Part shown: positions 8,913 through 62,096 of the stretch, in pieces
Layout of the letters: each line of letters starts with the position of its first letter
Numbering within the stretch: the stretch's first letter is position 1
Assembly: GCA_020639315.1 (NCBI GenBank)
Contig: JACKGM010000001.1
Location: forward strand, 225,878 to 289,877
Origin: Candidatus Nomurabacteria bacterium
GTDB lineage: Bacteria; Patescibacteriota; Saccharimonadia; JAGOAT01
Reading direction: 5' to 3'
Length of the DNA: 64,000 nt
Notes under the pieces: model-generated
Told to the model about the DNA's origin: nothing
Databases searched by the model: none
Seen by the model: the letters and a program-made list of their open reading frames with translations, nothing else
Position numbers and translations under genes: made by a program

Positions 8913-8918
8913 GTTATT

Positions 8919-33510: not shown

Positions 33511-33996
33511 TGTCATCCTCCAGTTAAATACTGGATCTCCGGTATTACCCTAAAGGGTAATCCGAAGATGACACGGGAAGGGCATTGTCATCCTCCGAAT
33601 TCTCCTTGTCCTGTCATCCTCCGAAGTTCGGAGAACTTACGGGGGATCCAGTATTTTACATCGTGCATTGTCATCCTCCGAAGATCCGAAGGAGCTTACG
33701 GGGGATCCAGTATTTTGCATTTCTGGGATTCAATTCAAATACTGGATCTCCGGTATTTCTCTCTGGGTAATCCGAAGATGACGCGGGAAGGGCATTGTCA
33801 TCCTCCGAAGTTCGGAGAACTTACAGGGGATCCAGTATCTTGCATTGCCTTGAGATTCAATTCAAATACTGGATCTCCGGTATTTCTCTAAAGAGAAATC
33901 CGAAGATGACAGGAGGAGGGCATTGTCATCCTCCGAAACTCCGAAGGAGTTTACGGGGGAACCAGTATTTTGCATCGTGCATTGTCATCCTCCGAA
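33511..33996. mobile_element. Cluster of MITE/REP-like family 1 elements in mixed orientations (at least 4 arm pairs). It ends about 30 nt upstream of miaA.
   Basis: Multiple AAATACTGGATCTCCGGTATT...CCGAAGATGAC arms and reversed TGTCATCCTCCGAAGTTCGGAGAACTTACGGGGGATCCAGTATTT arms. Confidence 0.75.
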
Positions 33997-34026
33997 TCTC
34001 TCTCCCTTTGTGCTACACTAGAGACA

Positions 34027-34764
34027 ATGAACCCCCTAAGGCTAATCGGCATTGTCGGACAGACTGGATCGGGCAAGACAAGCCTGAGTTACCAAATTGC
34101 TGATCATATTATCAAACAAGGTCTAAAGCCGGTAATTATACTAGCAGACTCAAGAACTCTTTTTAAGGAGCTAGATATTGCTAGCGCCAAGCCTAGCAAG
34201 TCTCAGCTATCAACTTATAAACACCAGATGGTAGATATCCTAAATCCTGGTCAAAAATATACAGTCTACCAGTATCAGCAAGCGGTCAAGACCATCTTTG
34301 GAAATCTAGCAGACAACGAGATTCCTATCTTGGTCGGCGGTAGTGGGCTGTATTTTGATGCTACTATTTACGACTACCAATTCCCTCAAGACAAGTCTGA
34401 TCGAGATAGAAATACTACCAAGTATCAGACTAAGATTTTTGGCTTTCATTACCCAAGGCAGGAATTGAGAGCAAGGCTTGCTGAGAGGCTAGATTTGATG
34501 ATTGAAGAGGGCTTGATCAAGGAAGTCGAGGAAATCATGGTAGCTTATGGGTCTAACTGTATTGCCCTGAGGTCTACTACAGCCAATCGAGCTCGGGATT
34601 ATTTGCTCGGCCTAGAGACTATGGAGGAGACTAGGAGACTGATTGTCCGTGACAATCTTAGCCTTGCCAAACGACAATTCACTTGGTTTAAAAGAAACCG
34701 GGAGATCAGTTGGAACCTACCTTTAGCTCAGATACTTGGTGAGGTTGATAGCTTGGTACAGTAA
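34027..34764 (+). CDS. miaA: tRNA dimethylallyltransferase (MiaA).
   Basis: N-terminal P-loop IGIVGQTGSGKTS. Overall MiaA-like length and motifs. Start placed at the ATG at 34027 (MNPLRL) rather than the track's 33970, which lies inside repeat sequence. Confidence 0.75.
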   Translation: MNPLRLIGIVGQTGSGKTSLSYQIADHIIKQGLKPVIILADSRTLFKELDIASAKPSKSQLSTYKHQMVDILNPGQKYTVYQYQQAVKTIFGNLADNEIPILVGGSGLYFDATIYDYQFPQDKSDRDRNTTKYQTKIFGFHYPRQELRARLAERLDLMIEEGLIKEVEEIMVAYGSNCIALRSTTANRARDYLLGLETMEETRRLIVRDNLSLAKRQFTWFKRNREISWNLPLAQILGEVDSLVQ

Positions 34765-34767
34765 TCA

Positions 34768-35079
34768 AGATTCAAATACTGGATCTCCGGTATTTCTCTA
34801 AAGAGAAATCCGAAGATGACAGGAGGAGGTGGATCTCCGGTATTACCCTCCGGGTAATCCGAAGATGACAGGAGGAGGGCATTGTCATCCTCCGAATTCT
34901 CCTTGTCCTGTCATCCTCCGAAGTTCGGAGAACTTACGGGGGATCCAGTATCCCTGTATTTACAGGTATTCAATTCAAATACTGGATCTCCGGTATTTCT
35001 CTTTTAGAGAAATCCGAAGATGACAAGAAGGGCATTGTCATCCTCCGAAGTTCGGAGAACTTACGGGGGATCCAGTATC
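34768..35079. mobile_element. MITE/REP-like family 1 cluster downstream of miaA.
   Basis: Same arm, hairpin and sub-repeat signatures in both orientations. Confidence 0.75.
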
Positions 35080-35230
35080 TCGAGGTTACTTATAGCAAGT
35101 TAAAAACAAAATCAGACATTTTTATCGATCACAATCCCTGACCTGGCACTAGAGTCCATTAGGCTGAGTTTCATCTTTCACCATATCATGAATATGATTC
35201 AGTAGAAGAACTCAACTACTGGTTCTCTAT

Positions 35231-35395
35231 TAGACTTGTTCCTTAAGTAAGGTTTCTGGCACCAGATCATCTATTTTGGACTATAATAATCTTTTCACTT
35301 TATCACCTTAACTCTGTTAGGGCTCTTTACGAAAAGACTATTCTAGTCTTAAACTAGGCAATTTTGGTCTCAAAAATTATTAAGGAACAAGTCTA
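35231..35395. mobile_element. 165-bp element bounded by perfect 16-bp terminal inverted repeats TAGACTTGTTCCTTAA...TTAAGGAACAAGTCTA (MITE-like family 3).
   Basis: TIRs read directly. A degenerate second copy lies at about 59810-59980. Confidence 0.55.
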
Positions 35396-35412
35396 TTATC
35401 TTAGTCAGGGAA

Positions 35413-35440
35413 TTGGATTTTGTTTTGAGCTTGCTATAAT
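35413..35440 (+). promoter_or_regulatory. Promoter TTGGAT-N16-TATAAT, with the ATG of murT exactly 6 nt downstream of the -10 hexamer. This predicts a leaderless mRNA.
   Basis: Hexamers at 35413-35418 and 35435-35440. ATG at 35447. No SD sequence. Confidence 0.45.
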
Positions 35441-35446
35441 AACCCT

Positions 35447-36754
35447 ATGAACCCAAGCATCATCCTGACTGTCTGGTTTGTAAAAATTTTTACAGTCTTG
35501 ACCAAACTCTTCGGCTATCAAGCCAGCACCCTCCCTGGCCTAATCGGATTCAGGCTAGACTCTCAGCTTCTAGACAAGTTGATCAAAAGCTACCAGGGCA
35601 AGTTGATCCTAATCTCCGGCACCAATGGCAAAACCACTACTACCAAGCTAATAGCAGACTTCCTAAGCTCAAGTGGCAAAACTCTGGTCACTAATAGTAG
35701 TGGATCCAATCTAGAAAGAGGGATTCTAGCGAGCTTGATCAAAGGGAGTAGCTGGAGAGCTAAGCTCGAGCAGGATTACCTGGTAATTGAGATCGATGAA
35801 GCAGAGCTTGCAAGGATTGTCTCTAGGTTAGACCCAAACTACCTCCTAGTAACCAACCTTAGCCGTGACCAGCTAGATCGTTATGGTGAAATCGATAGTC
35901 TAGCTACTAAGATTGGAGGGGCAATCCGTAGCCTAGATTGTCAGCTGATAATCAATGGGGATGACCCCTTGCTAGCTAGTCTCAAGACCACAAAACCAGC
36001 TATTTATTATGGGTTTAGCTTCGATAGTCAGCAGTTACCGACTAGCGGGTCAGAGCTTTCAGATATCCCCTATGACATCAAGACCAAGCAAAAAATCAAG
36101 TACCATAATCGCTATCTGGGACATCTTGGAGACTACTATACAGATAGCCATAGCTTGACTCGACCAAAGCTAGATTACCACTTGGACAAGCTAGATCTAG
36201 AGACTGGTAAGCTCCAAATCAATCATCAGCCACTTGATACCAAGCTTAGTGGAGTCTACAACTACTATAATATCCTAGCTAGTTATAGCTTGATTTGTAG
36301 TCTGGGATACAATGATAGCCAGTTTCAGTCTTTCTTGCCAAGCTTTGAACCAGCTCCAGGTCGCAGTCAATCTTTGAGGCTTGATGGTCGAGAGCTGACG
36401 ATTGCTCTAGCCAAAAATCCAGTCGGAATGAACCAGGTCATAAGCTATGTGATCAACTCAAAGCAGTATCAAAAAGTAATCATCTTGATCAATGACCAAA
36501 TAGCCGATGGCAGAGATGTCTCTTGGCTCTATGATTGTGACTTTCAAACAGTGTTACCTACTACAAAACTGTTTGCTGGAGGACTGAGGGCAAAAGACTT
36601 AAGGCTAAGACTGACGGTGGCAGGGCTTGAGTCAAGCCTGCTTGAGAAGCTTGATAAATCTAGCCTCCTAGCCAAAACTGACCCCGATGATCGGATCCTA
36701 ATAGTGCCAAACTATACTGCTATGCAAGATGTTTTTGAGGTAATTGGCCAATAG
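35447..36754 (+). CDS. murT: Lipid II isoglutaminyl synthase subunit MurT (Mur-ligase-family protein).
   Basis: Mur ligase ATP-binding motif ISGTNGKTTTTKLIADFL. Length ~435 aa. Immediately followed by a GatD homolog. Confidence 0.75.
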   Translation: MNPSIILTVWFVKIFTVLTKLFGYQASTLPGLIGFRLDSQLLDKLIKSYQGKLILISGTNGKTTTTKLIADFLSSSGKTLVTNSSGSNLERGILASLIKGSSWRAKLEQDYLVIEIDEAELARIVSRLDPNYLLVTNLSRDQLDRYGEIDSLATKIGGAIRSLDCQLIINGDDPLLASLKTTKPAIYYGFSFDSQQLPTSGSELSDIPYDIKTKQKIKYHNRYLGHLGDYYTDSHSLTRPKLDYHLDKLDLETGKLQINHQPLDTKLSGVYNYYNILASYSLICSLGYNDSQFQSFLPSFEPAPGRSQSLRLDGRELTIALAKNPVGMNQVISYVINSKQYQKVIILINDQIADGRDVSWLYDCDFQTVLPTTKLFAGGLRAKDLRLRLTVAGLESSLLEKLDKSSLLAKTDPDDRILIVPNYTAMQDVFEVIGQ

Positions 36755-36755
36755 T

Positions 36756-37466
36756 ATGAAGCTAAAACTGATTTATCTTTACCCAGAAATAATGAATACC
36801 TATGGTGATAGGGGCAATGTGATGCTGCTCGAAGCAAGGGCCAAAGATTATGGGATTGAAATATCGACTGACTATTATACCCTTGGTGACCAGCTTGACC
36901 TCACCCAGTATCAACTCTTATTTTTTGGAGGTGGACAGGATAAGGGGCAAAATCTGATTGCCAGAGATCTCATGTATCACAAAGCTCAATTGTCAGATGC
37001 GGTAAAGAGAGGGATTGCCGGCTTGCTGGTATGTGGTGGCTATCAGATGCTGGGGAGTGAGGTCGGGCTGGCAGATGGTGGGGTGCTGGAGGGTCTATCA
37101 ATCTTACCGGTTAAGACTCTAGTCGGCAAAAATCGCAAGATTGGTAATCTATTGGTGCAGTCTGAGCAGTTTGGGTCACTGGTTGGTTTTGAAAACCATA
37201 GTGGCAACACGATTCTTGATCAGTCAGGTAAGGCTCTTGCTCAAACTATCAAGGGTTATGGCAATAATGACTCTGCCATTGATGAGGGAATTATCTATCG
37301 CAATCTGATTGGCACCTATATGCATGGACCATTTTTACCTAAAAATATTCAAGTAGCGGACTGGCTACTTTCTAGAGCAGTCGGTAAAGACCTATTGACT
37401 AATACTCAGTCTAGCCTCTACAAGGTCTCTATCTCCGCTCGTGAGTCTGTGCTTGGTGCTTTATAG
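36756..37466 (+). CDS. gatD: Glutamine amidotransferase GatD (CobB/CobQ-like GATase1), partner of MurT for peptidoglycan D-Glu amidation.
   Basis: Conserved blocks LYPEIMNTYGDRGN, FFGGGQD, CGGYQMLG, GFENHSG, GYGNNDS and GTYMHGPFLPKN match the GatD family. Start set at ATG 36756, directly after the murT stop. Confidence 0.75.
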   Translation: MKLKLIYLYPEIMNTYGDRGNVMLLEARAKDYGIEISTDYYTLGDQLDLTQYQLLFFGGGQDKGQNLIARDLMYHKAQLSDAVKRGIAGLLVCGGYQMLGSEVGLADGGVLEGLSILPVKTLVGKNRKIGNLLVQSEQFGSLVGFENHSGNTILDQSGKALAQTIKGYGNNDSAIDEGIIYRNLIGTYMHGPFLPKNIQVADWLLSRAVGKDLLTNTQSSLYKVSISARESVLGAL

Positions 37467-37509
37467 GATTTTTGGGCAACTCCGAGATACTAGACTTCTA
37501 AGTAGTACG

Positions 37510-38050
37510 AAATACTGGATCCCCCGTAAGTTCTCCGAACTTCGGAGGATGACTAATGCGCGAAATACTGGTTCCCCCGTAAACTCCTTCGGAGTTTCGG
37601 AGGATGACAAGACAAGAGAGAGTGTCGGAGGATGACAATGCCCTTCCCGTGTCATCTTCGGATTTCTCTAAAAGAGAAATACTGGAGATCCACCCTCTCC
37701 TGTCATCTTCGGATTACCCGGAGGGGAATACCGGAGATCCACCTCCTCGTGTCATCTTCGGATTACCCGGAGGGTAATACCGGAGATCCAGTATTTGAAT
37801 TTGGTATTAAAGTAATGCGAAATACTGGATCCCCCGTAAGTTCTCCGAACTTCGGAGGATGACTAATGCGCGAAATACTGGTTCCCCCGTAAACTCCTTC
37901 GGAGTTTCGGAGGATGACAAGACAAGAGAGAGTTTCGGAGGATGACAAGACAAGAGAGAGTTTCGGAGGATGACAAAAGAAGGGTGGACTTCGGAGGATG
38001 ACAGGACGAGGGGTTTCGGAGGATGACAATGCAAAGCCTGGATTCGGAGG
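37510..38050. mobile_element. MITE/REP-like family 1 cluster. It includes a ~5-unit 29-nt sub-repeat array at about 37895-38040.
   Basis: Same signatures. The array reads ggaggatgacaagacaagagagagtttc repeated with variants. Confidence 0.75.
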
Positions 38051-38065
38051 GTGGTGAGGTCTTAT

Positions 38066-38228
38066 TAACCCTGTTGCCATATAACCTCACGGCTTCAAAA
38101 CTGCCATTTTTGCCCCAGACTAGCAAAACACTTCGCAGCGTAACTCCTGTTATGCTTTGTCGTGTTTTGGTATTCTGGAATAAAAATCATCAGCTTTGAC
38201 CTCGCAAGTTTATATGGCAACAGGGTTA
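38066..38228. mobile_element. 163-bp MITE-like element (family 2) bounded by perfect 17-bp TIRs AACCCTGTTGCCATATA...TATATGGCAACAGGGTT, flanked by TA.
   Basis: Read directly. A second copy at 45234-45396 is in opposite orientation, and a related uninterrupted (empty) site is at about 59590. Confidence 0.6.
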
Positions 38229-38244
38229 CTGAGCTAAAAATGTA

Positions 38245-38273
38245 TTCGCAAACAAGAAAATCACTGGTATAAT
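38245..38273 (+). promoter_or_regulatory. Promoter TTCGCA-N17-TATAAT, with the ATG 6 nt downstream (leaderless).
   Basis: Hexamers at 38245-38250 and 38268-38273. ATG at 38280. Confidence 0.4.
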
Positions 38274-38279
38274 AGAGTA

Positions 38280-38930
38280 ATGTTAGATCAATTGTTTGGC
38301 TCCAAAACCAGAGTGAAGTTATTAACCCTATTTTATAATAATGTCGATCGTCCATATTATGTCAGAGAGATCACAAGAAAAATCGATGAGCAAATCAATT
38401 CAGTCAGACGGGAGCTGCAAAACCTGCTTTCAATCGGTATTCTCAAGTCAGTTTCTCGTTCCAACCGACTATATTATGAGGTTGACCCCGGGTTCAAGTT
38501 CTTTAAGCAATTCGAGCAAATATTCCAAAATCTAGATCAGACAGATGCCACTGATGATAAGCTAAACAAAGAAGAAGAGAAAATCACTCGAATGATCCGG
38601 AGGACTGGCAATGTCAAATTGCTCTTCCTCAGCGGCTCGTTTGTCCGAGGTTCGAGGCAGATGATCGATATCTTTGTGGTCGGAGATGTCAATAAGACCC
38701 AGCTAGCAAACTCGGTCGAGATGCTAGAGCAAGACATGAATCGGGAACTCAACTATACCGCGATGAGAATCGAGGACTTTGACTACCGCCGCAACCTCAA
38801 TGATCGGTTTTTGACAGATATTTTAGATTCCAAAAAGATTGTTTTGATTGATGAGCTTGGTCTGTATCACAAATCAGTCGGGATCAAGGATCAATCAGAG
38901 GAAGATTCTAGTGAAAGAGATCAAGGTTAG
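38280..38930 (+). CDS. Winged-HTH DNA-binding protein fused to a nucleotidyltransferase-fold domain (putative regulator).
   Basis: N-terminal wHTH-like YYVREITRKIDEQINSVRRELQNLLSIGIL. Minimal NTase motif LFLSGSFVRGSRQMIDIFVVGD. Confidence 0.45.
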   Translation: MLDQLFGSKTRVKLLTLFYNNVDRPYYVREITRKIDEQINSVRRELQNLLSIGILKSVSRSNRLYYEVDPGFKFFKQFEQIFQNLDQTDATDDKLNKEEEKITRMIRRTGNVKLLFLSGSFVRGSRQMIDIFVVGDVNKTQLANSVEMLEQDMNRELNYTAMRIEDFDYRRNLNDRFLTDILDSKKIVLIDELGLYHKSVGIKDQSEEDSSERDQG

Positions 38931-39927
38931 TTTTTCGATCCCCTCGATCCTTCAGGTGATTGGCGTGCTGGTTGGGGTTGTGGTAGTCTGGAATCTTAGA
39001 TCAGTTTTAATTCCTTTGCTTATCAGTATCATCATAGCAGCAGCGCTTAATCCGATTGTCCAGATGATGACCAGGCGAAAGATTCCCAGACCCTTAGCTG
39101 TCTTGATCGTTTTCGCTATATTGATGGCTTTACTAATCACCTTGATTGGGCTAGTGATCCCCATCCTTGCCAGCCAAATTGGTGAGATTGTCAACCAGGG
39201 TCCAACAATTGCAACTCAGTTCAAGGATTTGCTGATCGAGATAGGGTTGCCGAATAGTGTAATCCAGGAAATTAATATCGAAAGGGTTGGGCACTATGCT
39301 AGCCAACTTGAAGGACAAATCAGTGGATCAGTCGGAGCTTTGGTCAATGGTTTAGCTCAGTTTGTTACAATCATTGTTTTTACCGTTTACTTACTGCTAG
39401 GTAGTAGTACGATTGGGGCTAGCTATGATCGAGTAGTCAAGGATTGGCCAATCCGTGAACGATTAGTCAGGATTGGTGATAAAATTAGCCAAAAACTAAG
39501 CTATTGGCTCAGGGGTCAGATTGTTTTATCATTTGTAATCTTTGGGTTCAGCTACATTGGGCTAAGGATTATCGGGGTTGAGAGCGCCTTTACTTTGGCA
39601 GTGATTGCTGGCATGACCGAGGCAATTCCAATCATTGGTCCTGTTATTGCCGGGGTTATTGCTGGACTTGTGGCTTTGGTGACCTCTCCGGTTCAGGCAC
39701 TCTTGGTAGTGCTATACTATATTGTCTTGCAACAGCTGGAGAATAATCTAATCGTACCCCTAGTCATGAGAAAAGCCTTGGGTTTGCCTCCACTCACTGT
39801 ATTATTTGCTCTGCTAGTCGGAGCAAAACTTCTGGGATTTGTTGGTGTAATCTTTGCAGTACCTTTGGCTTCTATTATTACAATTACTGTGGAGGAATTT
39901 TTGAGCAATGGCGAAGAAGCGGAATAG
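38911..39927 (+). CDS. AI-2E family transporter (PerM/UPF0118-like permease).
   Basis: Polytopic membrane protein with the conserved C-terminal block GLRIIGVESAFTLAVIAGMTEAIPIIGPVIAGVIAGLVAL. Start set at GTG 38911, preceded by a GAGGA RBS. The track ATG at 38848 would overlap the upstream gene by 83 nt. Confidence 0.6.
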   Translation: MKEIKVSFSIPSILQVIGVLVGVVVVWNLRSVLIPLLISIIIAAALNPIVQMMTRRKIPRPLAVLIVFAILMALLITLIGLVIPILASQIGEIVNQGPTIATQFKDLLIEIGLPNSVIQEINIERVGHYASQLEGQISGSVGALVNGLAQFVTIIVFTVYLLLGSSTIGASYDRVVKDWPIRERLVRIGDKISQKLSYWLRGQIVLSFVIFGFSYIGLRIIGVESAFTLAVIAGMTEAIPIIGPVIAGVIAGLVALVTSPVQALLVVLYYIVLQQLENNLIVPLVMRKALGLPPLTVLFALLVGAKLLGFVGVIFAVPLASIITITVEEFLSNGEEAE

Positions 39928-42064
39928 TACTAAGAAAGTATCAAAGCAGGCTAAAACCAAAGAGCTTACTTTTAACCCAATCAAGTACGAGATAATCGCT
40001 GTCTTGATTGGATTTTTGGCAATTATGCTGCTGGCTGCCAGTTTTAATTTGGCCGGAGGTTTGGGAGAAGCAATTCTTTCAGGGTTTAAGGTGATTTTTG
40101 GTTCAGCTGTCTATGCCTTTATTTTGATTTTGCTAGTCTATGCTTATCAGCTATTTCGACTGGAAGATTTTCCGAAAAAGTTTCGGTTTGTTGCGTTGTT
40201 TATTGTGCTAGTGAGCTTGTCGGGTATATTTGGAATTTTATCAGAAGATAAGGCCTTTAGTCTTAATGCAATTAGATCCCATGGTGGACTGGTTGGTTGG
40301 ACCCTTGATAGTATTTTGGTTGGGCTGATTGGTAAACCCTTGAGTATTCTACTAATGGTGATTACGGGGTTAATCGGACTAATCTTGGCAGCCAACAAAA
40401 GTATTAAAGATTTGTTTAGTAAGGAAAAAGCAACTAGTGACAAGAAGCAGGCTGATAGCATCGATAAGGATCCAAAGTCCCAAGACCTCAATCGTTTGGC
40501 GATTCGAGGGACGATTGACGCTAGTGGAGATAAAAAGTCTTCAAGTAGCAAGGAGCAAGAGCCAATCAAACCAAGCAAAACCCTTTCGGCGCTAGTACTT
40601 GAAAGCGATCCAGATTGGCAAGCACCGAAGCCAGAATTTCTCGAAGCTACCACTACCAAACCGGACGCAGGAGATGTCAAAGAAAATGCCAAGACTATCA
40701 AGAATACCTTTGCTGACTTCAATATAGCGGTCGAAATGCACGGAGTCAATATCGGTCCGACTGTCAGTCAATATAGCTTGAAACCGCCTCCTGGAGTCCG
40801 TTTGACCAAGCTAACCACTCTTGACCACAATTTGGCACTAGCTTTGGCGGCCCATCCGATCAGGATAGAAGCACCAATCCCAGGCAAGAGTTTGGTGGGA
40901 GTAGAGATGCCCAATAAGCGTCCGGCAGTAGTCAGAATGAGGGATAGTTTATTTGCTAAATCAATGCAATCCAACCCAGATCCTCTAAGCTTTGTGATTG
41001 GCCGAGATGTCAATGGGGAAGTAGTGACAGCCAATCTTGCCAAGATGCCCCATCTACTAATTGCTGGAGCGACTGGCTCGGGTAAGTCTGTCACAGTCAA
41101 TTCCTTGATAGTCAGTATGCTTTATCGCAACTCACCCAATCAACTCAAGCTGATCTTGGTCGATCCAAAACGAGTCGAGATGACACTTTATAATGATATC
41201 CCCCATTTGTTGACCCCAGTGATTGTAGAACCAGAAAAAACCGTTTCTGCTTTGCGTTGGGCAGTGGCTGAAATGGATAGACGCTATCGTACATTGTCTA
41301 GTCACAGAAAGCGTAATATTGATGAATACAATGAGATAGAAGATCAGGACAATATGCCTTATATCGTGATCGTAATTGATGAGTTGGCAGATTTGATGGC
41401 GGTGGCTGCCAATGAAGTCGAAGGCTTAATCGTTAGATTAGCCCAGATGGCGAGGGCAGTAGGGATTCACTTGGTGCTTGCTACCCAGAGGCCGAGTGTC
41501 GATGTGATTACTGGCCTAATCAAGGCAAACTTCCCGGCTCGGATTGCTCTATCTACTACTTCTCAGATTGATTCTAGGACAATTATCGATCAGGCTGGGG
41601 CTGAGAAATTGCTCGGCAAGGGGGATCTACTCTTGGTTACCCCAGATTTCCTGAAGCCAAGACGGGTGCAGGGGGTATTTCTCAGCGAGAAGGAGGTCAG
41701 TAGCGTAACCAACTTCTTAAGAGAACAAAGACCACCTAGCTATGACCAAGAAATCCTTGCTCAAGCGGCAAAATTGGGCAACAAAGGCTCGGCTAGCTTT
41801 GGCGGAGGAGAAGATCAAGATGATTTATACCAAGACGCACTTGAGGTAGTAATTAGCTCGGGCAATGCTTCGGCATCTATGCTCCAGAGAAGGTTAAGGG
41901 TTGGTTTTCAGAGAGCTTCGAGATTACTAGATATGATGGAAGAAAATGGCATCATCTCTCCGCAGGATGGACAAAGATCGAGAGAAGTTTTGGTGGATTC
42001 GATCGAGCAAGCCAATCAGCTCTCAGAGCTAGGGGATCAAGATTCAGAGCTGGATGAATACTAA
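39908..42064 (+). CDS. ftsK: DNA translocase FtsK/SpoIIIE.
   Basis: N-terminal TM segments. Walker A AGATGSGKSVTVNS, Walker B IVIVIDELADLM, and a C-terminal gamma-domain-like winged helix. Confidence 0.85.
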   Translation: MAKKRNSTKKVSKQAKTKELTFNPIKYEIIAVLIGFLAIMLLAASFNLAGGLGEAILSGFKVIFGSAVYAFILILLVYAYQLFRLEDFPKKFRFVALFIVLVSLSGIFGILSEDKAFSLNAIRSHGGLVGWTLDSILVGLIGKPLSILLMVITGLIGLILAANKSIKDLFSKEKATSDKKQADSIDKDPKSQDLNRLAIRGTIDASGDKKSSSSKEQEPIKPSKTLSALVLESDPDWQAPKPEFLEATTTKPDAGDVKENAKTIKNTFADFNIAVEMHGVNIGPTVSQYSLKPPPGVRLTKLTTLDHNLALALAAHPIRIEAPIPGKSLVGVEMPNKRPAVVRMRDSLFAKSMQSNPDPLSFVIGRDVNGEVVTANLAKMPHLLIAGATGSGKSVTVNSLIVSMLYRNSPNQLKLILVDPKRVEMTLYNDIPHLLTPVIVEPEKTVSALRWAVAEMDRRYRTLSSHRKRNIDEYNEIEDQDNMPYIVIVIDELADLMAVAANEVEGLIVRLAQMARAVGIHLVLATQRPSVDVITGLIKANFPARIALSTTSQIDSRTIIDQAGAEKLLGKGDLLLVTPDFLKPRRVQGVFLSEKEVSSVTNFLREQRPPSYDQEILAQAAKLGNKGSASFGGGEDQDDLYQDALEVVISSGNASASMLQRRLRVGFQRASRLLDMMEENGIISPQDGQRSREVLVDSIEQANQLSELGDQDSELDEY

Positions 42065-43025
42065 GACTGATCCAGTTGATTTGGTAGCGTTGGGAGCCAG
42101 ACTTGAGTCTGCTCGCAAAGCCAAGAAGCTTAGCTTGGCTCAGGCTGAAAAATCTACTAAGATTCGGGTGTCAATTCTTGAGAAGATAGAGTCTGGGCAG
42201 TACCAACTTGATGTTTATTGGTCAGGTTTGGTCAATAATTATGCCAAGTTTTTAAACCTTGATCCTGAGATTGATAATAGCCAAGGTGCAAGCTCGATTG
42301 AAACCTCAAAGATTTTTTCAGTAAGACCGATCAATGATCGACGTTTAATATTTACACCAAAGACATTCTTGTTTTTGGTGCTAAGCTTTATATTTGGGAC
42401 TATATCAGTATTCATCGCTATCCAGCTCAGGGCTCTATTGTCGAGTCCAAAGATTGAGCTAGATAATATTGATCAAGTGATTACAATCAATCAGAGAATA
42501 TTTGAGCTCAGTGGTAAGACGGATAATGATAGTGATGTTTTTATCAATGACTCACCGGTGCTGAGCAATCAGGACGGGAGCTTTAGTGAAATGATTACTT
42601 TGAGTCAAGGGTATAATAATCTGGTAGTTTCAGCAAGAAATAGACTGGGTAAGCAAACTGACAAGGGGATAACAATCATCGTCGATGCACCTGAAGTCGC
42701 CCAGAATACCCAAGAAGAACAAGAGGATAGTTTAGGAGACCCGGGAACAGGAGAGGTAATACTAAAACTCAAAGTAGGGGATAGTGCTACTTGGCTGGTA
42801 GTTACGGTAGACGGGGTAGAGGTGTTTAGAGGGACTTTACTGGCAGGAGTCGAACAGGAGTTTGTAGCACAGGAGCAGATTGGTATCACTACTGGTAATG
42901 CTAAGAGTACCCAGCTCACTCTGACCAATGATAAGGTGACAGATTATCAGATAGGTGAGCTGGGGGGAGAAGGGGAGGTCAAGCGCGATTTGATTTTTGG
43001 GCGGGATACTGAGTTTATTGAATAG
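42054..43025 (+). CDS. rodZ: RodZ-like protein with an XRE-type HTH, a single TM helix and a DUF4115-like C-terminal domain.
   Basis: N-terminal LGARLESARKAKKLSLAQAEKSTKIRVSILEKIESGQ. TM LFLVLSFIFGTISVFIAIQL. C-terminal KLKVGDSATWLVVTVDGVEVFRGTLLAGV pattern. The 11-nt overlap with the ftsK stop is ATGAATACTAA. Confidence 0.55.
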   Translation: MNTKTDPVDLVALGARLESARKAKKLSLAQAEKSTKIRVSILEKIESGQYQLDVYWSGLVNNYAKFLNLDPEIDNSQGASSIETSKIFSVRPINDRRLIFTPKTFLFLVLSFIFGTISVFIAIQLRALLSSPKIELDNIDQVITINQRIFELSGKTDNDSDVFINDSPVLSNQDGSFSEMITLSQGYNNLVVSARNRLGKQTDKGITIIVDAPEVAQNTQEEQEDSLGDPGTGEVILKLKVGDSATWLVVTVDGVEVFRGTLLAGVEQEFVAQEQIGITTGNAKSTQLTLTNDKVTDYQIGELGGEGEVKRDLIFGRDTEFIE

Positions 43026-43029
43026 AGGT

Positions 43030-43161
43030 AGTCATCCTCCGAAACCCGCCTCTCTTCTGTCATCCTCCGAAGTTCGGAGAACTTACGGGGGATCCAGTAT
43101 CCGGCATTGTGCATTGTCATCCTCCGAATCCTCATAGAGGATTACAGGGGATCCAGTATTT
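43030..43161. mobile_element. MITE/REP-like family 1 element (two reversed arms) between rodZ-like and recA.
   Basis: tgtcatcctccgaagttcggagaacttacgggggatccagtat and gtcatcctccgaatcctcatagaggattacaggggatccagtatttt. Confidence 0.7.
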
Positions 43162-43240
43162 TGCATTAGAGTTATGTTTGCTATATATTCGTATTTGTAT
43201 TACAATATAAATCAACAGTATATTTTAATCAGGAGGAGTT

Positions 43241-44239
43241 ATGAGTAATACAAAAGATCCAGCCAAGAGTAAGGCAATCGACATGGCTTTAGAGCAGATA
43301 GAGCGACAGTTTGGTTCTGGCGCAATCATGCGTTTTGGTCAAGGCCAGAAGGTACAAGTAGAAACCTTTTCTTCTGGTAGTCTCAACCTAGACGAAGCAC
43401 TTGGTGGTGGTTTGCCAAAAGGTAGAATTATCGAGATTTATGGTCCAGAGTCTAGTGGTAAGACTACCTTATCATTGCACGCAGTGGCTGAGGTTCAAAA
43501 ATCTGGTGGTACTGCTGCATTCATCGATGCAGAGCATGCTCTGGATCCAGAATACGCAAGCAAGATTGGGGTCAAACTCGATGAGCTACTGATCTCTCAG
43601 CCAGACAATGGTGAGCAGGCACTGGAGATCTGCGAGACTCTAGTCCGCTCAGCTGCCGTCGATTTGGTAGTAGTTGATTCAGTAGCAGCTTTGGTGCCAA
43701 AAGCTGAGATCGACGGCCTGATGGGGGATAGTCATGTCGGTCTGCAGGCTAGGCTAATGTCTCAGGCTTTGCGTAAGTTGACAGGCATTGTCTCCAAGTC
43801 TAATACAACAGTAATCTTTATCAATCAGTTGAGACTCAAGATAGGAGTGATGTTTGGTAACCCTGAGACCACACCTGGTGGTCAGGCCTTGAAGTTTTAT
43901 GCATCAGTCAGGCTAGACATCCGGAGAACCGAAAGACTTACTAAGGAGCAAGAACAGATAGGCAATCGGGTCAAGGTCAAGGTGATCAAGAATAAGATTG
44001 CTCCACCCTTCAAGATTGCTGAGTTTGATATCATGTACAATCAAGGGATTTCCAGGAGTGGCGAAGCTCTAGATATTGGTCTAAACTTAGGCTTAATCAA
44101 GAAATCAGGCTCTTGGTACAGCTATGGTGAAGACAAGATTGGCCAAGGAGCTCAGGCAGCCAAGGAATTTTTGGAAGCCAACCCAAAGGTGCTTAATAAA
44201 ATAGTAAATGAAGCGAAAGCCAAGTCCAAGTCTAAATAA
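43241..44239 (+). CDS. recA: Recombinase RecA.
   Basis: [39 protein letters not shown] and the remainder are canonical RecA. An AGGAGG RBS lies 7 nt upstream. Confidence 0.95.
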
Positions 44240-44705
44240 AAAATTACCTCATTATTTCTTGCATGAAGATGAGGTAGGTCTAGCCTTGTATCGACATTAT
44301 CCATTGAGGCTAAGGTGGCCTTTTTATGGGTTTTTTTTTAGTATCATTATTGCTATCTTGATTCAGACTTATACAGGATATACTTGGGAGTATTTAGCCT
44401 TGATCCCTGCTGGGATTATTTTTTTGAGAGGTCTGGTCGGTTGGTATTATAGCTACGTCTTGGTAACCAATTACCAGGTATTAAGTATTGAACAAAACGG
44501 CTTATTTGATCGAGAGATTCGTCAAATCCAGCTAAAAAATATTCAAAATGTCAATTTTGCCCAGAGGGGTCTGGTGGCTAGTATCCTAGGGTATGGTAAT
44601 ATTGAAGTGGTAGCGACATTTAGTAATGAGATATTTTATTTTAAGGCTATCATGAAGCCACAGGAGTTACAGAATACTCTGATGAGACTGATTAGTCAGA
44701 TTTAG
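44208..44705 (+). CDS. Membrane protein with a bacterial PH (bPH_2/DUF304, YdbS/YdbT-like) domain.
   Basis: Two TM helices followed by [47 protein letters not shown]. The start is uncertain, because the ORF overlaps the recA 3' end by 32 nt. Confidence 0.45.
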
Positions 44706-44720
44706 GAGAGTATAAATGCG

Positions 44721-45175
44721 AAATACTGGATCCCCCGTAAGTTCTCCGAACTTCGGAGGATGACAAGACAAGGGGCGGGTTTCGGAGGATGACAATCCTC
44801 TCCCTGTCATATTCCAAAATCCTGTAAGGATTTATGGGATATCCAGTATTTGAGTTGAATCCCCGGAAATGCAAAATACTGGATCCCCCGTAAGTTCTCC
44901 GAACTTCGGAGGATGACAAGACAAGGGGCGGGTTTCGGAGGATGACAATCCTCTCCCGTCATATTCCAAAATCCTGTAAGGATTTATGGGATATCCAGTA
45001 TTTGAGTTGAATCCCCGGAAATGCAAAATACTGGATCCCCCGTAAACCCTCTGGGTTTCGGAGGATGACAAGACTCTTCCTGTGTCATCTTCGGATTTCT
45101 CTAAAAGAGAAATACCGGAGATCCAGTATTTGAATTTGGTATTAAAGTAATGCGGAGATACTGGGTCCCCCGTAA
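44721..45175. mobile_element. MITE/REP-like family 1 cluster. A duplicated ~155-bp unit spans 44721-44875 and 44876-45030.
   Basis: Same signatures. The two units are near-identical. Confidence 0.75.
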
Positions 45176-45233
45176 TGACCCTCGTTATATAGCAAGTTAA
45201 AAACTAAACCAGACTTTTGACCCAACTCTAGAT

Positions 45234-45396
45234 TAACCCTGTTGCCATATAAACTTGCGAGGTCAAAGCTGATGATTTTTATTCTAGACTAGCAAAACAC
45301 GACAAAGCATAACAGGAGTTACGCTGCGAAGTGTTTTGCTAGTCTGGGGCAAAAATGGCAGTTTTGAAGCCGTGAGGTTATATGGCAACAGGGTTA
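45234..45396. mobile_element. Second copy of the 163-bp family-2 MITE-like element (TIR AACCCTGTTGCCATATA), in opposite orientation to the copy at 38066.
   Basis: The internal 129 bp is the reverse complement of the copy at 38066-38228. It also carries the perfect inner inverted repeat TAGACTAGCAAAACAC/GTGTTTTGCTAGTCTA. Confidence 0.6.
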
Positions 45397-45558
45397 GTTT
45401 ATAAAGCTAGTTTTCTTACTCACCATATCTATGGATATGGCTCTTAAGAAGAACTAGCTTTCTAGTTCTCTATAGTACAGCTCAAATTGTCCGGTTTTGT
45501 TTTGAGCTTGCTATAGGTTGAGTAAATTGAAACACTGGCAGTAAGTGCGAAAGTCCAG

Positions 45559-45564
45559 TATAAT
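45559..45564 (+). promoter_or_regulatory. TATAAT -10 hexamer 6 nt upstream of ATG 45571 (leaderless mRNA).
   Basis: Read directly. No SD sequence. Confidence 0.4.
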
Positions 45565-45570
45565 AAGCAC

Positions 45571-46773
45571 ATGAAGAATACTAAGTCAGATACCCCAAAA
45601 ACAAAGACCTCAACCAAAGCAAAAACTAAAGAGACTAAAAAAACCAAAGATACCGGTGATATCAAAACCGCGCCAAAGAAAATCAATTCGATTTCGATCA
45701 AAGAAAAAAGATTGTCATCAGTAGGCAGTAAAATCAACTTCCAAGACAAGCTCAGTAAAGTAAAAGCTAGGTCTAGGGTCAGTTTTCTCAAAAAACATAT
45801 GATTGTAATGGTTTCAGGTGTGATTGGGATCGCTATTGTGATAGTAGTTGGTATTGGTATAGCTATCTATGGCTTTAAGTCAGAAAGTAAATTGGTCTAT
45901 AGGATCAGCAGGATCATTAATTATCCAGTAGTGACAATTGATTCTAAGATTTTCCCTTGGTTTAGCACTAAGTCTGCTGGCTATGATCAATATTTGTATT
46001 ATCTTGAATCGACCAGACAAGGAGAGAAAACAGTTAGGGAAAAACAAGGCAATACCAATGAGATTAGTGAGGAAGATTACCTGACTCTTAAAACAGAGAT
46101 TCTAGATAATCTAGGTGATCGTTTGATTCTCGATGCCGAGGCTAAGAAGCGGGGGATTGAGATCAGTGATGAGGAAGTCCAGACTAGGTATACGCAATTG
46201 GTAGAGAGTTCTGGGGGTGAAGAGAAAGCAAGTGAATTTATTCGCGATTATTATGGCTGGTCGGTAGCTGAGTGGCAGGAAAATATCTTAAGAAAAGGTC
46301 TTTTGGAAGAGAAGCTAGCCGAAGCACTTTCAAACGACCAAGAGCTAGCAGATCAAGCAAGGGTCAAGGCCGAGGAAGTACTAGCCAAAGTGGAGGCAGG
46401 AGAAGATTTTGCTCAGCTAGCTCAAGAGTATTCAGAAGATGGTAGTGCTCAAAATGGTGGAGACCTTGGAGTGATTGAAAAAGGAGCGACAGTACAAAGC
46501 TTTGAGGATGCGGCTTTCGCCCTTGACAAGGGAGAGACTAGTGGGATAGTCGAGACAGAGTTTGGCTTCCATATCATCAAAGTGATGGATAAAAGCGATG
46601 ATGGCAAAATCAGAGTATCTCATATCTTGATCAAGAGAGTGGATTTTGATAGCTGGATGGAGCAGGCCAGAATTGATTATGACTTGAAGTTTATGATTAA
46701 TTTTGATCATAGTACAGATTCTTCAGACAATCCAGAGTCCAACGAAGCTCAAGCTTCGGAAGCCACGGAGTAG
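45571..46773 (+). CDS. Membrane-anchored PpiC/parvulin-type peptidyl-prolyl cis-trans isomerase (PrsA/PpiD/SurA-like chaperone).
   Basis: Lys-rich N-terminus, TM VMVSGVIGIAIVIVVGIGIAIYGF. Parvulin domain EDFAQLAQEYSEDGSAQNGGDLGVIEKGATVQSFEDAAFALDKGETSGIVETEFGFHIIKV. Confidence 0.75.
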   Translation: MKNTKSDTPKTKTSTKAKTKETKKTKDTGDIKTAPKKINSISIKEKRLSSVGSKINFQDKLSKVKARSRVSFLKKHMIVMVSGVIGIAIVIVVGIGIAIYGFKSESKLVYRISRIINYPVVTIDSKIFPWFSTKSAGYDQYLYYLESTRQGEKTVREKQGNTNEISEEDYLTLKTEILDNLGDRLILDAEAKKRGIEISDEEVQTRYTQLVESSGGEEKASEFIRDYYGWSVAEWQENILRKGLLEEKLAEALSNDQELADQARVKAEEVLAKVEAGEDFAQLAQEYSEDGSAQNGGDLGVIEKGATVQSFEDAAFALDKGETSGIVETEFGFHIIKVMDKSDDGKIRVSHILIKRVDFDSWMEQARIDYDLKFMINFDHSTDSSDNPESNEAQASEATE

Positions 46774-47155: not shown

Positions 47156-48063
47156 GAAAATATTTGGCTGGTATTATCTGGTCCCTGATGGTGGGGTTGG
47201 TAGTGGCAACAATTGCTAGTATATATTATATTTATATTCAAAATACCGATAAGTTGACCAAGGAAATATCTAGTGATTGGCAGAGTCTAATCGAGGGTTC
47301 AGACAAACTAATCCAAGATGTAGATCAGTCACTAGCTAGTTTTGATTATCAGGCGATTGGTCAGTATTTTACTCAGTACTATAAGCTGGTCGAGGCCCAG
47401 AAGAGTAGCTTGGCTGAGGATAGAGGTAGACTGGTTGATCAAAACCTGCTGATTAATTACCGAGATTTTTTGGATTATTATTGGAAGTATACTAGGCAGA
47501 TTGAGGCAATGGCTACCAACCTTGCTTTGCTCAAGAGTCAAGATTTTTCTGAGCTAAATATCGTCCGTGAGGATGCCAAAAATCGTAGTCTGGAGTTGGT
47601 GGGGGATTTTGAGATTATTAGTCCTGAATTACCAGAGAAAGTTTGGGATTTTGACTTGATATTTGATCAGGGCAAGGAGGCCTTGGATAAGCAAGTAGAT
47701 CAAGGTGAGATAACCCAAGAGCTGCAAGATAGCAATCTGGATACAATACGGGAGACCACCACTACTATTCTAGAAGCCTGGATTGATTCTGAGCTTTCGG
47801 TAGTCAAGGCTTACTATGCTGATGATCTGGCCAAAAAGATTGATTTTGACCAGATGATCAAGGGGTCTAGAAAGTATCAAATTCCTGAAAAGTTTAGTAT
47901 AGACTATATCGAGAGAGTAGACGACCAGTATCTGGTAGGGTTCAAGATGTTTTATGCTTTTCCGGGTGAGAATGGTCAGTACAGTGCGATTCAGTCTAGT
48001 GTATTTTATTTTGCGTATGATCAAGAGCTAGAGCTTTGGTTGATAGTTGATCAAAAAGTCTAA
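47152..48063 (+). CDS. Hypothetical N-terminally anchored protein (303 aa).
   Basis: ORF with TM IIWSLMVGLVVATIASIYYIYI. No recognisable domain. A 4-nt overlap with the upstream gene suggests coupling. Confidence 0.5.
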   Translation: MRKYLAGIIWSLMVGLVVATIASIYYIYIQNTDKLTKEISSDWQSLIEGSDKLIQDVDQSLASFDYQAIGQYFTQYYKLVEAQKSSLAEDRGRLVDQNLLINYRDFLDYYWKYTRQIEAMATNLALLKSQDFSELNIVREDAKNRSLELVGDFEIISPELPEKVWDFDLIFDQGKEALDKQVDQGEITQELQDSNLDTIRETTTTILEAWIDSELSVVKAYYADDLAKKIDFDQMIKGSRKYQIPEKFSIDYIERVDDQYLVGFKMFYAFPGENGQYSAIQSSVFYFAYDQELELWLIVDQKV

Positions 48064-48089
48064 GACTAGATTGAAAATTTAGAAATGCA

Positions 48090-48346
48090 AAATACTGGAT
48101 CCCCCGTAAGTTCTCCGAACTTCGGAGGATGACAAGACAAGGGGCGGGTTTCGGAGGATGACGATGCCTCCTCCCCGTGTCATCTTCGGATTTCTCTAAA
48201 AGAGAAATACCGGAGATCCAGTATTTGGATTGAATAATGAGGAATGCAAAATACTGGATCCCCCGTAAGTTCTCCGAACTTCGGAGGATGACAAGAGATG
48301 AGTCATATTCCAAAATCTCGCAGGGATTTATGGGATATCTAGTACT
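48090..48346. mobile_element. MITE/REP-like family 1 cluster.
   Basis: Same signatures, with forward arms at 48090 and 48252 and a reverse arm at about 48213. Confidence 0.75.
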
Positions 48347-48377
48347 ACAGTAATAAATAAGAGTTGTCAGTTTATAT

Positions 48378-51119: not shown

Positions 51120-51149
51120 GCTGTAGGCACAAACGACTTAAAATGCGGG

Positions 51150-51343
51150 GATACTGGATCCCCCGTAAGTTCTCCGAACTTCGGAGGATGACAATCCTCT
51201 TCCCGTGTCATCTTCGGATTACCCGGAGGGTAATACCGGAGATCCAGTATTTGAATTGAATCCCATAAATGCAGAGATACTGGTTCCCCCGTAAACTCCT
51301 TCGGAGTTTCGGAGAATGGCAGGAGAGAAACGGGGGTTTCGGA
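51150..51343. mobile_element. MITE/REP-like family 1 element downstream of valS.
   Basis: gatactggatcccccgtaagttctccgaacttcggaggatgaca...tgtcatcttcggattacccggagggtaataccggagatccagtattt. Confidence 0.75.
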
Positions 51344-54458: not shown

Positions 54459-55450
54459 TTGACCATAGTAGTCCAAAGCTGGTAAATACTGAAGAGATTG
54501 AGTTTGAACTCAGTCTGAGGCCTCAAAGGTTCAATGAATACATTGGTCAAGAAAGAGTCAAGTCAAGTCTTGACTTGGCGATTCGAGCCGCCAAAAAGAG
54601 AAATCAGCCGATAGACCATGTGTTGCTCTATGGGCCTCCCGGTCTGGGTAAAACTACTCTAGCTCAGGTGATAGCCAATGAACTAGGGACTAGCATCAAG
54701 ATTACTAGTGGGCCAGCTATTGAGAAGGCGGGTGATTTAGCCGCAATTTTGACCAATCTCGAGCAGGGGGATGTCTTGTTTATCGATGAGATTCATCGAA
54801 TGCCTCGTCAAGTAGAGGAGATACTATATTCTGGCATGGAAGATTTTGTCTTGGATATTATGCTAGGTAAGGGGCCTTCAGCTCAAAGTGTTCGGGTCGA
54901 TCTGGCACCCTTCACAGTCGTAGCAGCTACTACCAAGTATGGAGGATTGTCGGCGCCTCTGAGGGATCGGTTTGGCTTGATTCATCATTTGGATTTTTAT
55001 TCTGAGTCAGAGATTGCTAGTATTTTGGAGCGTTCGAGTAAGATTCTTCAGGTAGATAGTGAACGCTCAGTCTTGGAAGTCCTTGCGGGTCGATCTAGAT
55101 TAACGCCACGGATTGCTAATAGACTTCTAAAGCGAATTAGAGATTATGCCGATGTTCATGGTCAGGGGAGGGCTACCCCAGATATCGTTAGGGACTGCCT
55201 GGATCTACTTGAGATTGATAGTCTGGGGTTAGACAAGAGAGACAGGAGACTAATGAAGGTCATAAGTGAATATTATGGAGGAGGCCCAGTCGGACTAAGT
55301 GCATTAGCAGCGACCATGCATGAGGAAACTCAAACTATTGAAGATGTTTATGAGCCTTATTTGATGCAGATTGGATTTATCAAGCGGACACCTCGAGGTA
55401 GGAGCTTAACCTCAAAAGGGGAAGATTATATTAAACTTGTTCTCCCCTAA
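54455..55450 (+). CDS. ruvB: Holliday junction ATPase RuvB.
   Basis: Walker [15 protein letters not shown], Walker [10 protein letters not shown] and the RuvB C-terminal winged helix. Confidence 0.9.
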
Positions 55451-56004
55451 GTTCTCCGAACTTTTGGGGTGATAATGCCTGAGATACTGGATCCCCCGTA
55501 AAATCCTTTGGATTTTCGGAGGATGACAAGACAAGGGGCGGGTTTCGGAGGATGACAATACCCCCTCCCGTGTCATCTTCGGATTACCCGAAGGGTAATA
55601 CCGGAGATCCAGTATTTGAATTGAATACCAGAAATGCAAGATACTGGATCCCCCGTAAGTTCTCCGAACTTCGGAGGATGACAATGCACGATGCAAGATA
55701 CTGGATCCCCCGTAATCCTCTATGAGGATTCGGAGGATGACAGGAGAGGGGCGGATTTTCGGAGGATGACAGGAGTTGGGTCACCAAACCAAATTTCCAG
55801 CTCCTCCTTGGGTCACCAAACCAAATTTCCAGCTCCTCCTTGTGTCATCTTCCAAAATCCCGCCCCCTCCTTCCCGTGTCATCTTCCAAAATCCCGCCCC
55901 CTCCTTCCCGTGTCATCTTCCAAAATCCCGTAGGGATTTATGGGAGATCCACCCCGCTGTCATCTTCGGATTACCCGAAGGGTAATACCGGAGATTCAGT
56001 ATTT
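55449..56004. mobile_element. MITE/REP-like family 1 cluster with a distinct sub-repeat set (31-nt gtcaccaaaccaaatttccagctcctccttg x2; 33-nt tgtcatcttccaaaatcccgccccctccttccc x3).
   Basis: Read directly. Confidence 0.75.
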
Positions 56005-56175
56005 ATAGACCCAACACCCTGGCTTACCACTAAATTCCTGACCTATACTAGTACTAGCCACCTTTACTCCTTCTTCATATCAAAGGATATGACTCAGTCT
56101 TAAAGAAGACTATTACTTAGTCCAGGACCAAGAATTTATTGGTGGCAAGACAAAGTGTTGGGTCTATAAGTATGC

Positions 56176-58871: not shown

Positions 58872-59452
58872 CGTCATTCCCCTTGTCCTGTCATCCTCCG
58901 AAACTCCTCCTCGCATCGTCATCCTCCGAAACTCGCCCCTTGTCTTGTCATCCTCCGAAACTCGCCCCTCTCCTGTCATCCTCCGAAACTCCGAAGGAGT
59001 TTACGGGGGATCCAGTATTTCGCGCATTTACAGGTATCCAACTCAAATACTGGATCTCCGGTATTACCCTCCGGGTAATCCGAAGATGACACGATAAGGG
59101 TCCTGTCATCCTCCGAAACCCACCCCTTGTCTTGTCATCCTCCGAAACTCCGAAGGAGTTTACGGGGGATCCAGTATTTCTGCATTAGTCATCCTCCGAA
59201 GTTCGGAGAACTTACGGGGGATCCAGTATTTTGCATTTGCTAATGTCCCAATCCCGGGATTCAATTCAAATACTGGATTTCCGGTATTTCTCTTTTAGAG
59301 AAATCCGAAGATGACAGGAGGGGGTGGGTCTCCCATAATTTCCTAAAGGAAATTATGGGAGATGACGTGAAGAGGGGGGCGGAATTTTGGAACATGACGA
59401 GAGAAGGCTAGGCCTCGTATAAATCCCTAAAGGAAACTTAAACTATGACAAT
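58872..59452. mobile_element. MITE/REP-like family 1 cluster. It includes a reversed array of GTCATCCTCCGAAAC cores separated by ~14-nt variable segments, and a perfect 15-bp palindrome TCTCCCATAATTTCC-taa-AGGAAATTATGGGAGA.
   Basis: Read directly. Confidence 0.75.
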
Positions 59453-59809
59453 GCAAGCCCGATTTTATTTTGAAATTGTATATATAGAATTGTAACAAAA
59501 TAGTATTTGCCTTAGCAAGCATGAGCAGTAATTATAGACCTAACACCCTGACTTATAGCAAGCTAAAAAAAACCAGACTTTTGACCCAACTCTAGAGTCT
59601 ATAAAGCTAGTTTTCTATAGTACAGCTCAAATTGTCCAGTTTTGGGTTGAGCTTGCTATATCTAAGGATAAGCCTCTCTTTAGAAAGAGAACTATTACTT
59701 AGTCTAGGGTCTAGGAATTTATTGTGGCAAGACAAAGTGTTAGGTCTATAAAGATTTGGTTTTATTGGTAGTCTAATATATAATCATTGGAGTAGCCTAG
59801 GCTACTGGT

Positions 59810-61609: not shown

Positions 61610-61644
61610 TAGGTGATAGCCTCAGATTAGGCATAGACAATACA

Positions 61645-62096
61645 AGGTCCCCCGTAAACTCCATGGGTTTCGGAGGATGACTGGACCCTTATCGTGTCAT
61701 CTTCGGATTACCCGGAGGGTAATACCGGAGATCCACCCTCTCCTGTCATCTTCGGATTACCCGGAGGGTAATACCGGAGATCCAGTATTTGAGTTGGATA
61801 CCTGTAGATGCGGGATACTGGATCCCTCGTAAACCCTCCGGGTTTCGGAGGATGACAGGACAAGGGACGAGTTTCGGAGGATGACAGTACCCTTTTTGTG
61901 TCATATTCCAAAATCCAAGAGGGATTTATGGGATATCCAGTATTTGAATTGAATCCCAGAAATACAAAATGCTGGATCCCCCGTAAGTTCTCCGAACTTC
62001 GGAGGATGACAATGCGAGGACGAGTTTCGGAGGATGACGATGCGAGGAGGATTTTCGGAGGATGACGATGCCAAGGCTGATTTCAGAGGATGATTA
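61645..62096. mobile_element. MITE/REP-like family 1 cluster with ~4-5 29-nt sub-repeat units.
   Basis: Same signatures. Confidence 0.75.

Follow-up and report, generated by a model that had tools for sequence, protein, structure and literature searches.

What are two short, almost identical sequences that lie 7 kb apart and in opposite orientations in a bacterial genome, and what would have moved them? We addressed this question in a 64 000-nt stretch of contig JACKGM010000001.1, assigned to Candidatus Nomurabacteria bacterium (hereinafter, the window). A reading of the sequence only had proposed that the copies at positions 38066–38228 (copy A) and 45234–45396 (copy B) are miniature transposable elements with inverted repeats (MITEs) of the IS630/Tc1-mariner type, inserted at TA. 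We consider it highly probable that the two are copies of a non-autonomous MITE of the IS5/PIF-Harbinger type, which shares its ends with an insertion sequence of ∼1.1 kb. The proposed MITE nature was borne out, since further copies and a transposase with matching ends both exist (the absence of the two together had been named as the ground for giving up the idea); the proposed transposase family and TA duplication did not hold.

Two inverted copies, further copies and the partner insertion sequence

The features on which the argument rests are the following (window positions):

38064–38066: left flanking triplet of copy A, ATT, identical to the triplet of the empty site in a relative (gagtct-ATT-gagctaa)
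38067–38227, minus strand: copy A, 161-bp core, opposite in orientation to copy B
38228–38230: right flanking triplet of copy A, ACT, followed by gagctaaaaatg as in the relative
45188–45515, plus strand: host repeat with ends TATAGCAAG...CTTGCTATA, with copy B nested inside
45232–45234: left flanking triplet of copy B, ATT
45235–45395, plus strand: copy B, 161-bp core, with the 15-bp inner inverted repeat intact
45396–45398: right flanking triplet of copy B, AGT, identical to the triplet of the paralogous empty copy
59554–59660, plus strand: paralogue of the host repeat, short and MITE-free, with the target triplet AGT at 59596–59598

The 17-mer AACCCTGTTGCCATATA has four exact matches in the window, against 0.19 expected from shuffled sequences, and the four coincide with the four element ends. 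Together the two copies make up the longest inverted repeat of the window (163 nt, 98% complementary); when they are aligned in opposite orientation only three differences are seen, all within one arm of the inner inverted repeat. Nearly palindromic throughout, the element can be regarded as one long, imperfect palindrome, yet its orientation can still be called: compared in the same orientation the copies are only ∼74% alike, thus the call of opposite orientations is sound. Similarity ends abruptly at the termini at both sites, and the flanks of the two sites are unrelated. The terminal repeat, described earlier as 17 bp long, is indeed perfect, with an actual length of 18 bp inside the element (AACCCTGTTGCCATATAA), or 19 bp with the flanking T/A. 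Likewise, the inner repeat of copy B is perfect as had been described, at 15 bp rather than 16 (AGACTAGCAAAACAC / GTGTTTTGCTAGTCT). The core of 161 bp (AACCCTG...CAGGGTT) begins with A, ends with T and has no coding capacity; only chance open reading frames (ORFs) cross it. Each copy is predicted to fold into one long hairpin, with a free energy of −42 kcal/mol (z −8.95) for copy A and −48.7 kcal/mol (z −10.65) for copy B.

Outside the window, a third copy (163 bp, 97.6% identical to copy A) was found at locus L059 of another metagenome. The host repeat around it is of the same kind, but the insertion point (ctctagaatcTAT-[element]) lies four bases further into the repeat, and this difference in position indicates an independent insertion. 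Each of the three copies (A, B and L059) differs from their consensus by one or two private changes, and such a star-like pattern is what recent copying from a master element should produce. A 166-bp copy at locus L044 represents a subfamily with 78% identity and has a perfect AAT/AAT; the CapA protein adjoining it has named homologues in Saccharibacteria only. Partial copies of this subfamily were seen at L039 and L060. All the MITE copies seen are intergenic.

Yet another form was found in a Candidatus Saccharibacteria metagenome-assembled genome (L007, CAYVOS010000038.1), where a complete 78-bp mini-element with the same ends (1365–1442) lies beside a decayed transposase gene. The region 47–1442 of this contig consists of a left end with a hairpin (47–108), decayed DDE_Tnp_4 and HTH_Tnp_4 fragments, a GC-rich ORF of 153 aa and then the mini-element; it looks like a decayed insertion sequence beside, or fused with, a minimal MITE. 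This was the only real case in a scan of the genome collection with the 18-mer, which gave 28 single matches, about the level of chance. Two single matches in viral contigs had no partner end and were judged to be chance as well.

The metagenome scan also revealed full-length elements sharing 19–21-bp ends with the MITE: L056 (1086 bp), L043 (1108 bp) and L060 (1101 bp), the last being frameshifted and accompanied by the MITE fragment on the same contig. The partner has a single ORF of 320–324 aa with an N-terminal HTH_Tnp_4 domain (Pfam, 32.7–39.9 bits, cut-off 27) and a DDE_Tnp_4 catalytic domain (85.8–92.1 bits, 3e-24 to 4e-26, cut-off 24.8), in which D146, D221 and E265 are invariant in 10 homologues. 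By Pfam criteria the partner falls in the DDE_Tnp_4 branch of the IS5 family, its transposase being a divergent relative rather than an equivalog; it may conceivably belong to an ISL2- or IS1031-like subgroup. Homologues with E < 1e-20 number 2474, mostly on contigs of ∼1.1 kb, as is typical of multi-copy insertion sequences, and in the further copies reached via the transposase protein the ends are unchanged apart from one or two positions. The hosts of this insertion sequence are Saccharibacteria-like and other uncultured bacteria.

Target duplication and transposase family

TA duplication is a hallmark of IS630/Tc1-mariner elements, and the ends of the element do invite such an interpretation: the arrangement T-AACCC...GGGTT-A places TA at both ends in 11 of the 13 elements examined, with no direct repeats further out. 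Size and perfect terminal repeats are also similar to those of IS630/Tc1-mariner (Stowaway-like) MITEs. Still, we find it very unlikely that we deal with a Stowaway-like MITE moved by an IS630/Tc1-mariner transposase, with TA inserted into and duplicated. The partner belongs to another superfamily: every full-length element with these ends codes for a DDE_Tnp_4/HTH_Tnp_4 transposase, of the IS5/Harbinger type, with no match to an IS630-type domain, and among the 58 loci with the terminal sequence no IS630-type (DDE_3) partner was found, all coding partners being DDE_Tnp_4. Furthermore, one variant of the insertion sequence present at two different sites (L061 and L062) reads T-GACCC in both, with TG in place of TA at the left end; since the same TG is shared by different sites, the second base belongs to the element and travels with it.

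What the duplication is was learned from the closest annotated relatives of the partner, ‘transposase family protein’ genes of cyanobacterial plasmids (40–46% identity over >90% of the length), with terminal repeats that align in register with those here (TAGAGTTGTTGGG against TAACCCTGTTGCC). Like the IS5-family elements of Nostoc punctiforme pNPUN02 and Leptolyngbya boryana pLBX, the partner has a single ORF in ∼1.0–1.1 kb; in contrast to them, the terminal sequence of the Saccharibacteria clade is its own, and its transposase is longer by ∼20 aa. For the N. punctiforme copy, true empty sites are available in three other Nostoc plasmids (gat-AAT-taat), while with the element in place the sequence is gat-AAT-[AGAC...GTCT]-AAT-taat. 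Taken as a 3-bp AAT duplication, this leaves the ends of the element symmetric, whereas a duplication of TA would need them to be asymmetric. The cyanobacterial copies duplicate A-W-T, as three more finished copies have AAT/AAT (two) and ATT/ATT (one).

A clade from groundwater metagenomes (55% identity, ends AGACCTGTTGCC) has AGT/AGT, ACT/ACT, AAT/AAT and ATT/ATT, perfect at five loci. Where the triplets are imperfect in this clade, one flank recurs each time at another locus, a sign of exchanged flanks or of chimeric assembly. The rule of the family is that the element starts with A, ends with T and duplicates an A-N-T triplet, in contrast with the T-W-A triplet targeted by canonical Harbinger elements; the apparent TA is the last base of the flank, T, followed by the first base of the element, A. 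Models with TA, 1-bp, 0-bp and Harbinger-style TAA/TTA duplications, considered for the 13 elements, were dropped in favor of A-N-T after the cyanobacterial true empty sites were found. TA as such is not diagnostic of Tc1/mariner, given that Harbinger relatives make 0-, 2- or 3-bp duplications, TA included (PMC12730594), and that the IS427 group of the IS5 family has 2-bp direct repeats (PMC3281130).

In four contig pairs (L069/L070, L085/L087, L093/L098 and L095/L099) one flank of the insertion sequence is common and the other is not, which indicates either that copies of the insertion sequence have recombined or that the assembly across the repeat is chimeric. Such pairs call for caution when duplications are read off metagenome contigs.

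An empty counterpart of the copy A site was found in a relative. The RecA of the window is 100% identical to NCBI MCB9834616.1, labelled Candidatus Nomurabacteria. The next-best RecA is 96% identical to that of the window, and it, as well as most other named matches, comes from Candidatus Saccharibacteria; the three sequences carrying this RecA (L029, L030 = GCA_017983775.1 and L031) share with the window both the order and the strand of the genes, the neighbors in the window being murT, gatD, an AI-2E permease gene, ftsK, a rodZ-like gene, recA, a PpiC-type rotamase gene, valS and rny. The spacer between gatD and the next gene is 43 bp in the relative versus 814 bp in the window, where it holds other repeats and copy A. 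At the site itself the relative reads ...gagtct-ATT-gagctaaaaatgtattcgcaaac... and the window ...tctt-ATT-[AACCC...GGGTT]-ACT-gagctaaaaatgtattcgcaaac. As copy A is absent from all three sequences at the syntenic site, it is an insertion relative to them. The length arithmetic at its right junction fits 161 bp plus 3 bp, and the TA model leaves ∼5 bases unexplained.

The insertion complex (37441–37466, 38052–38230) has replaced the 3′-end of gatD, with the product ending in ...ARESVLGAL* in the window and ...AREASLLS* in the relative. Copy A now has the former stop region of gatD (gagctaa) downstream of it, and gtgag(g)tct can be read both before and after the repeat array.

Copy B is nested in the host repeat, and the segment at 59583–59615, earlier taken for its empty site, does match the flanks of copy B; it is, however, a paralogue of the host repeat and not an allelic site. 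There is also no TA at its junction: the paralogue reads ctctag-AGT-ctataaag, and copy B reads ctctag-ATT-[161 bp]-AGT-ttataaag. The difference in length between the two is exactly 164, or 161 + 3 bp, while the TA model leaves three bases unexplained. The intergenic region of copy B could not be aligned with that of the relative.

These comparisons bear as well on a non-mobile segmental duplication that left inverted repeats behind, perhaps acting as recombination sites that invert the 7-kb block between them. That the window has just two copies, inverted and 7 kb apart, and that the flanks of copy B recur elsewhere in it would agree with such an origin. Nevertheless, we regard it as extremely improbable: the similarity stops exactly at the termini, copies exist in other metagenomes in other contexts and the same ends bound transposase genes. 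Moreover, the recurring flank is a separate repeat family with three copies, and the order of genes between the two copies is colinear with the relative, so the inversion has not happened.

Several observations weigh against assigning the window copies to an IS5/PIF-Harbinger type MITE. The triplets around both are imperfect, with a different middle base (ATT/ACT for copy A, ATT/AGT for copy B) and only one side equal to the empty-site triplet, whereas the finished-genome relatives of the insertion sequence have perfect triplets; among the five MITE copies the duplication is perfect in one (L044, AAT/AAT). The empty-site comparators are an orthologue from another species for copy A and a paralogue for copy B, neither of them allelic. 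The MITE resembles the insertion sequence over the terminal 19–24 bp alone, and the internal sequence is unrelated. No transposase gene or remnant was found in the 64-kb window, so that mobilisation in this genome is putative, and none of the 120 best transposase homologues is named from the source assembly. Finally, the sole NCBIfam match of the transposase, the IS5-family model NF033581, scores 62.6–64.9 bits, under the cut-off of 140 bits. A search for a closer relative of the L044 host, which could provide an allelic empty site, gave a nearest homologue only 69% identical.

How could the triplets have become mismatched? Later point mutation is unlikely for both copies, as the elements themselves carry only one or two changes. 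Conversion between paralogues of the host repeat is possible, because the triplet position varies across its copies (AGT at 59596–59598, AAT in L059). One could also speculate that bases of the donor flank were carried over at integration. Inversion between copies A and B was excluded as the cause, since the host repeat is continuous and the gene order is that of the relative.

With these reservations, the two elements qualify as MITEs on all the criteria examined, a clean duplication at the window copies being the one exception. Like IS5/PIF-Harbinger (‘Tourist-like’) MITEs, the window element is short, non-coding, AT-rich at the insertion point and hairpin-folding, and its terminal repeats are identical to those of a DDE_Tnp_4 insertion sequence with relatives that make 3-bp duplications; it differs from them in its Saccharibacteria-like host, from the candidate phyla radiation (CPR), in the unrelated interior and in the imperfect triplets. 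In the mechanism that we propose, the DDE_Tnp_4/HTH_Tnp_4 transposase of ∼320 aa would be supplied in trans, bind the shared termini and cut at the A...T ends of the element, which would then integrate at A-N-T triplets, duplicating them. We infer that this transposase moved these particular copies and that their imperfect triplets are former duplications.

The hairpin and the neighboring promoters

When the window type is compared with the L044 subfamily (78% identity), 9 of the 64 predicted hairpin pairs have changed on both sides and are still paired; 97% of cells are paired. Neither value was reached in any of 500 shuffles, and controls with shifted register gave 0–2 double changes. This comparison, made between two lineages only, suggests that drift in one hairpin arm is not independent of drift in the other. 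Possible causes are a structural need in movement, homogenisation of the two arms and some function for the host. It is conceivable, although rather doubtful, that the fold-back is under constraint, either because the hairpin is needed for movement (e.g. as a single-stranded or cruciform intermediate seen by an IS5-type transposase) or because it has been co-opted as an intergenic RNA or DNA structure; carry-over of donor-flank bases, as a reading of the triplets that differ in the middle base only, is a related possibility.

A structured intergenic repeat maintained by the host, with the hairpin acting in transcript insulation, termination or stability and with mobility secondary or past, would account for the very strong fold (z −9 to −10.6), for the nine compensated pairs and for the intergenic placement of all copies seen. 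The window element does resemble the ERIC and REP repeats of enterobacteria as an intergenic, imperfect palindrome of ∼130–160 bp found in either orientation with a strong predicted hairpin. What sets it apart from ERIC and REP is that it ends in clear transposon termini also found on an insertion sequence and that it is polymorphic for insertion in comparison with a relative; the analysis gave no evidence of a host function. The window copies also face opposite ways between genes of the same strand, turning six G-U pairs into A-C mismatches in one transcript; a search of the element against Rfam gave no meaningful match; and the covariation, coming from two lineages, could equally reflect a need for the hairpin in transposition or homogenisation of the arms. 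The promoters, too, lie downstream of the copies, and that of copy A is found without any MITE:

38245–38273, plus strand: promoter-like TTCGCA-17-TATAAT, six bases before the ATG at 38280; entirely downstream of copy A and present in the MITE-free relative
45535–45564, plus strand: promoter-like sequence with TATAAT at its end, six bases ahead of the ATG at 45571; copy B lies 139 bp upstream of its start

Overall, we hold a host-maintained repeat of this kind to be improbable.

The copies had been described as lying immediately upstream of genes with leaderless promoters. Copy A ends 51 bp before its ATG and copy B 174 bp before its own, so that copy B is not immediately adjacent. As for the promoters, both downstream genes carry TATAAT-N6-ATG, compatible with leaderless transcripts. 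The combination of TATAAT, six or seven bases and ATG, without a Shine–Dalgarno sequence, was seen at several genes (38268–38282, 45559–45573 and 35433–35449 in the window; 5150–5166 and 11532–11549 in L029), and this recurring TATAAT-N6-7-ATG arrangement fits leaderless transcripts in this lineage. The genes recA (43241) and ftsK (39908) do carry GGAGG.

Significance for the host lineage and other repeats of the window

The genomes of Saccharibacteria and other CPR bacteria are small and streamlined, and to our knowledge MITEs have not been reported in these bacteria; our search of the literature found no report of MITEs in Saccharibacteria or CPR. What is new here is the host; the kind of element, ordinary selfish DNA, is already known, and descriptions of MITEs related to IS5 exist for bacteria, e.g. 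for Porphyromonas gingivalis (PMC4596501). One Saccharibacteria-like lineage has recently gained several families of small mobile elements with no counterpart in a close relative. With its autonomous partner identified, the MITE becomes a marker for strain-level insertion polymorphism in the lineage, and the ends, target rule and catalytic residues are now defined for an apparently undescribed IS5-type clade. For those reading sequence only there is also a caution, that finding TA at the two ends is not enough in itself to indicate Tc1/mariner or IS630.

A different MITE-like element, also of 163 bp, occupies 35232–35394 and 59811 to about 59973; its ends (AGACTTGTTCCTTAAG) are of the same type as those of the IS5-like clades, and its fold has z −5.8. 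Of its two copies, the first lies within a third host-repeat copy and has a perfect ATT/ATT duplication, and in the second the right end has decayed. The host repeat family (35091–35438, 45188–45515 and 59554–59660 in the window, 757–813 in L059; length 107–352 bp) is thus the landing place of two different MITEs. The right end of the host repeat at 35431–35446 reads gcTATAATaaccctATG and supplies a −10 box six bases before the start of murT.

The intergenic regions also hold a very abundant repeat system, composed of ∼29-bp units (GTTTCGGAGGATGACAAGACAAGGG) along with ∼150-bp modules (ACTGGATCCCCCGTAAGTTCTCCGAACTTCGGAGGATGAC and its complement). The relative with the 96% identical RecA has none of it in the 20-kb syntenic region; in the window it makes up most of the intergenic expansion, at the following positions:

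8065–8930, 33600–35080, 37480–38055, 43050–43170 and 44710–45180: repeat system of ∼29-bp units and ∼150-bp modules
48010–48350, 51138–51330, 55420–56010, 58880–59420 and 61627–62100: the same system, continued

Repetition is seen within coding regions as well. Six tandem repeats of 831 bp occupy 688–5142, inside an ORF of 2415 aa (58–7305), and five of the six are identical over a 300-nt reference segment. A run of giant ORFs (1309–2682 aa) extends over 8992–33326, with segments of 99–100% identity at 11903, 17121, 24166 and 32329.

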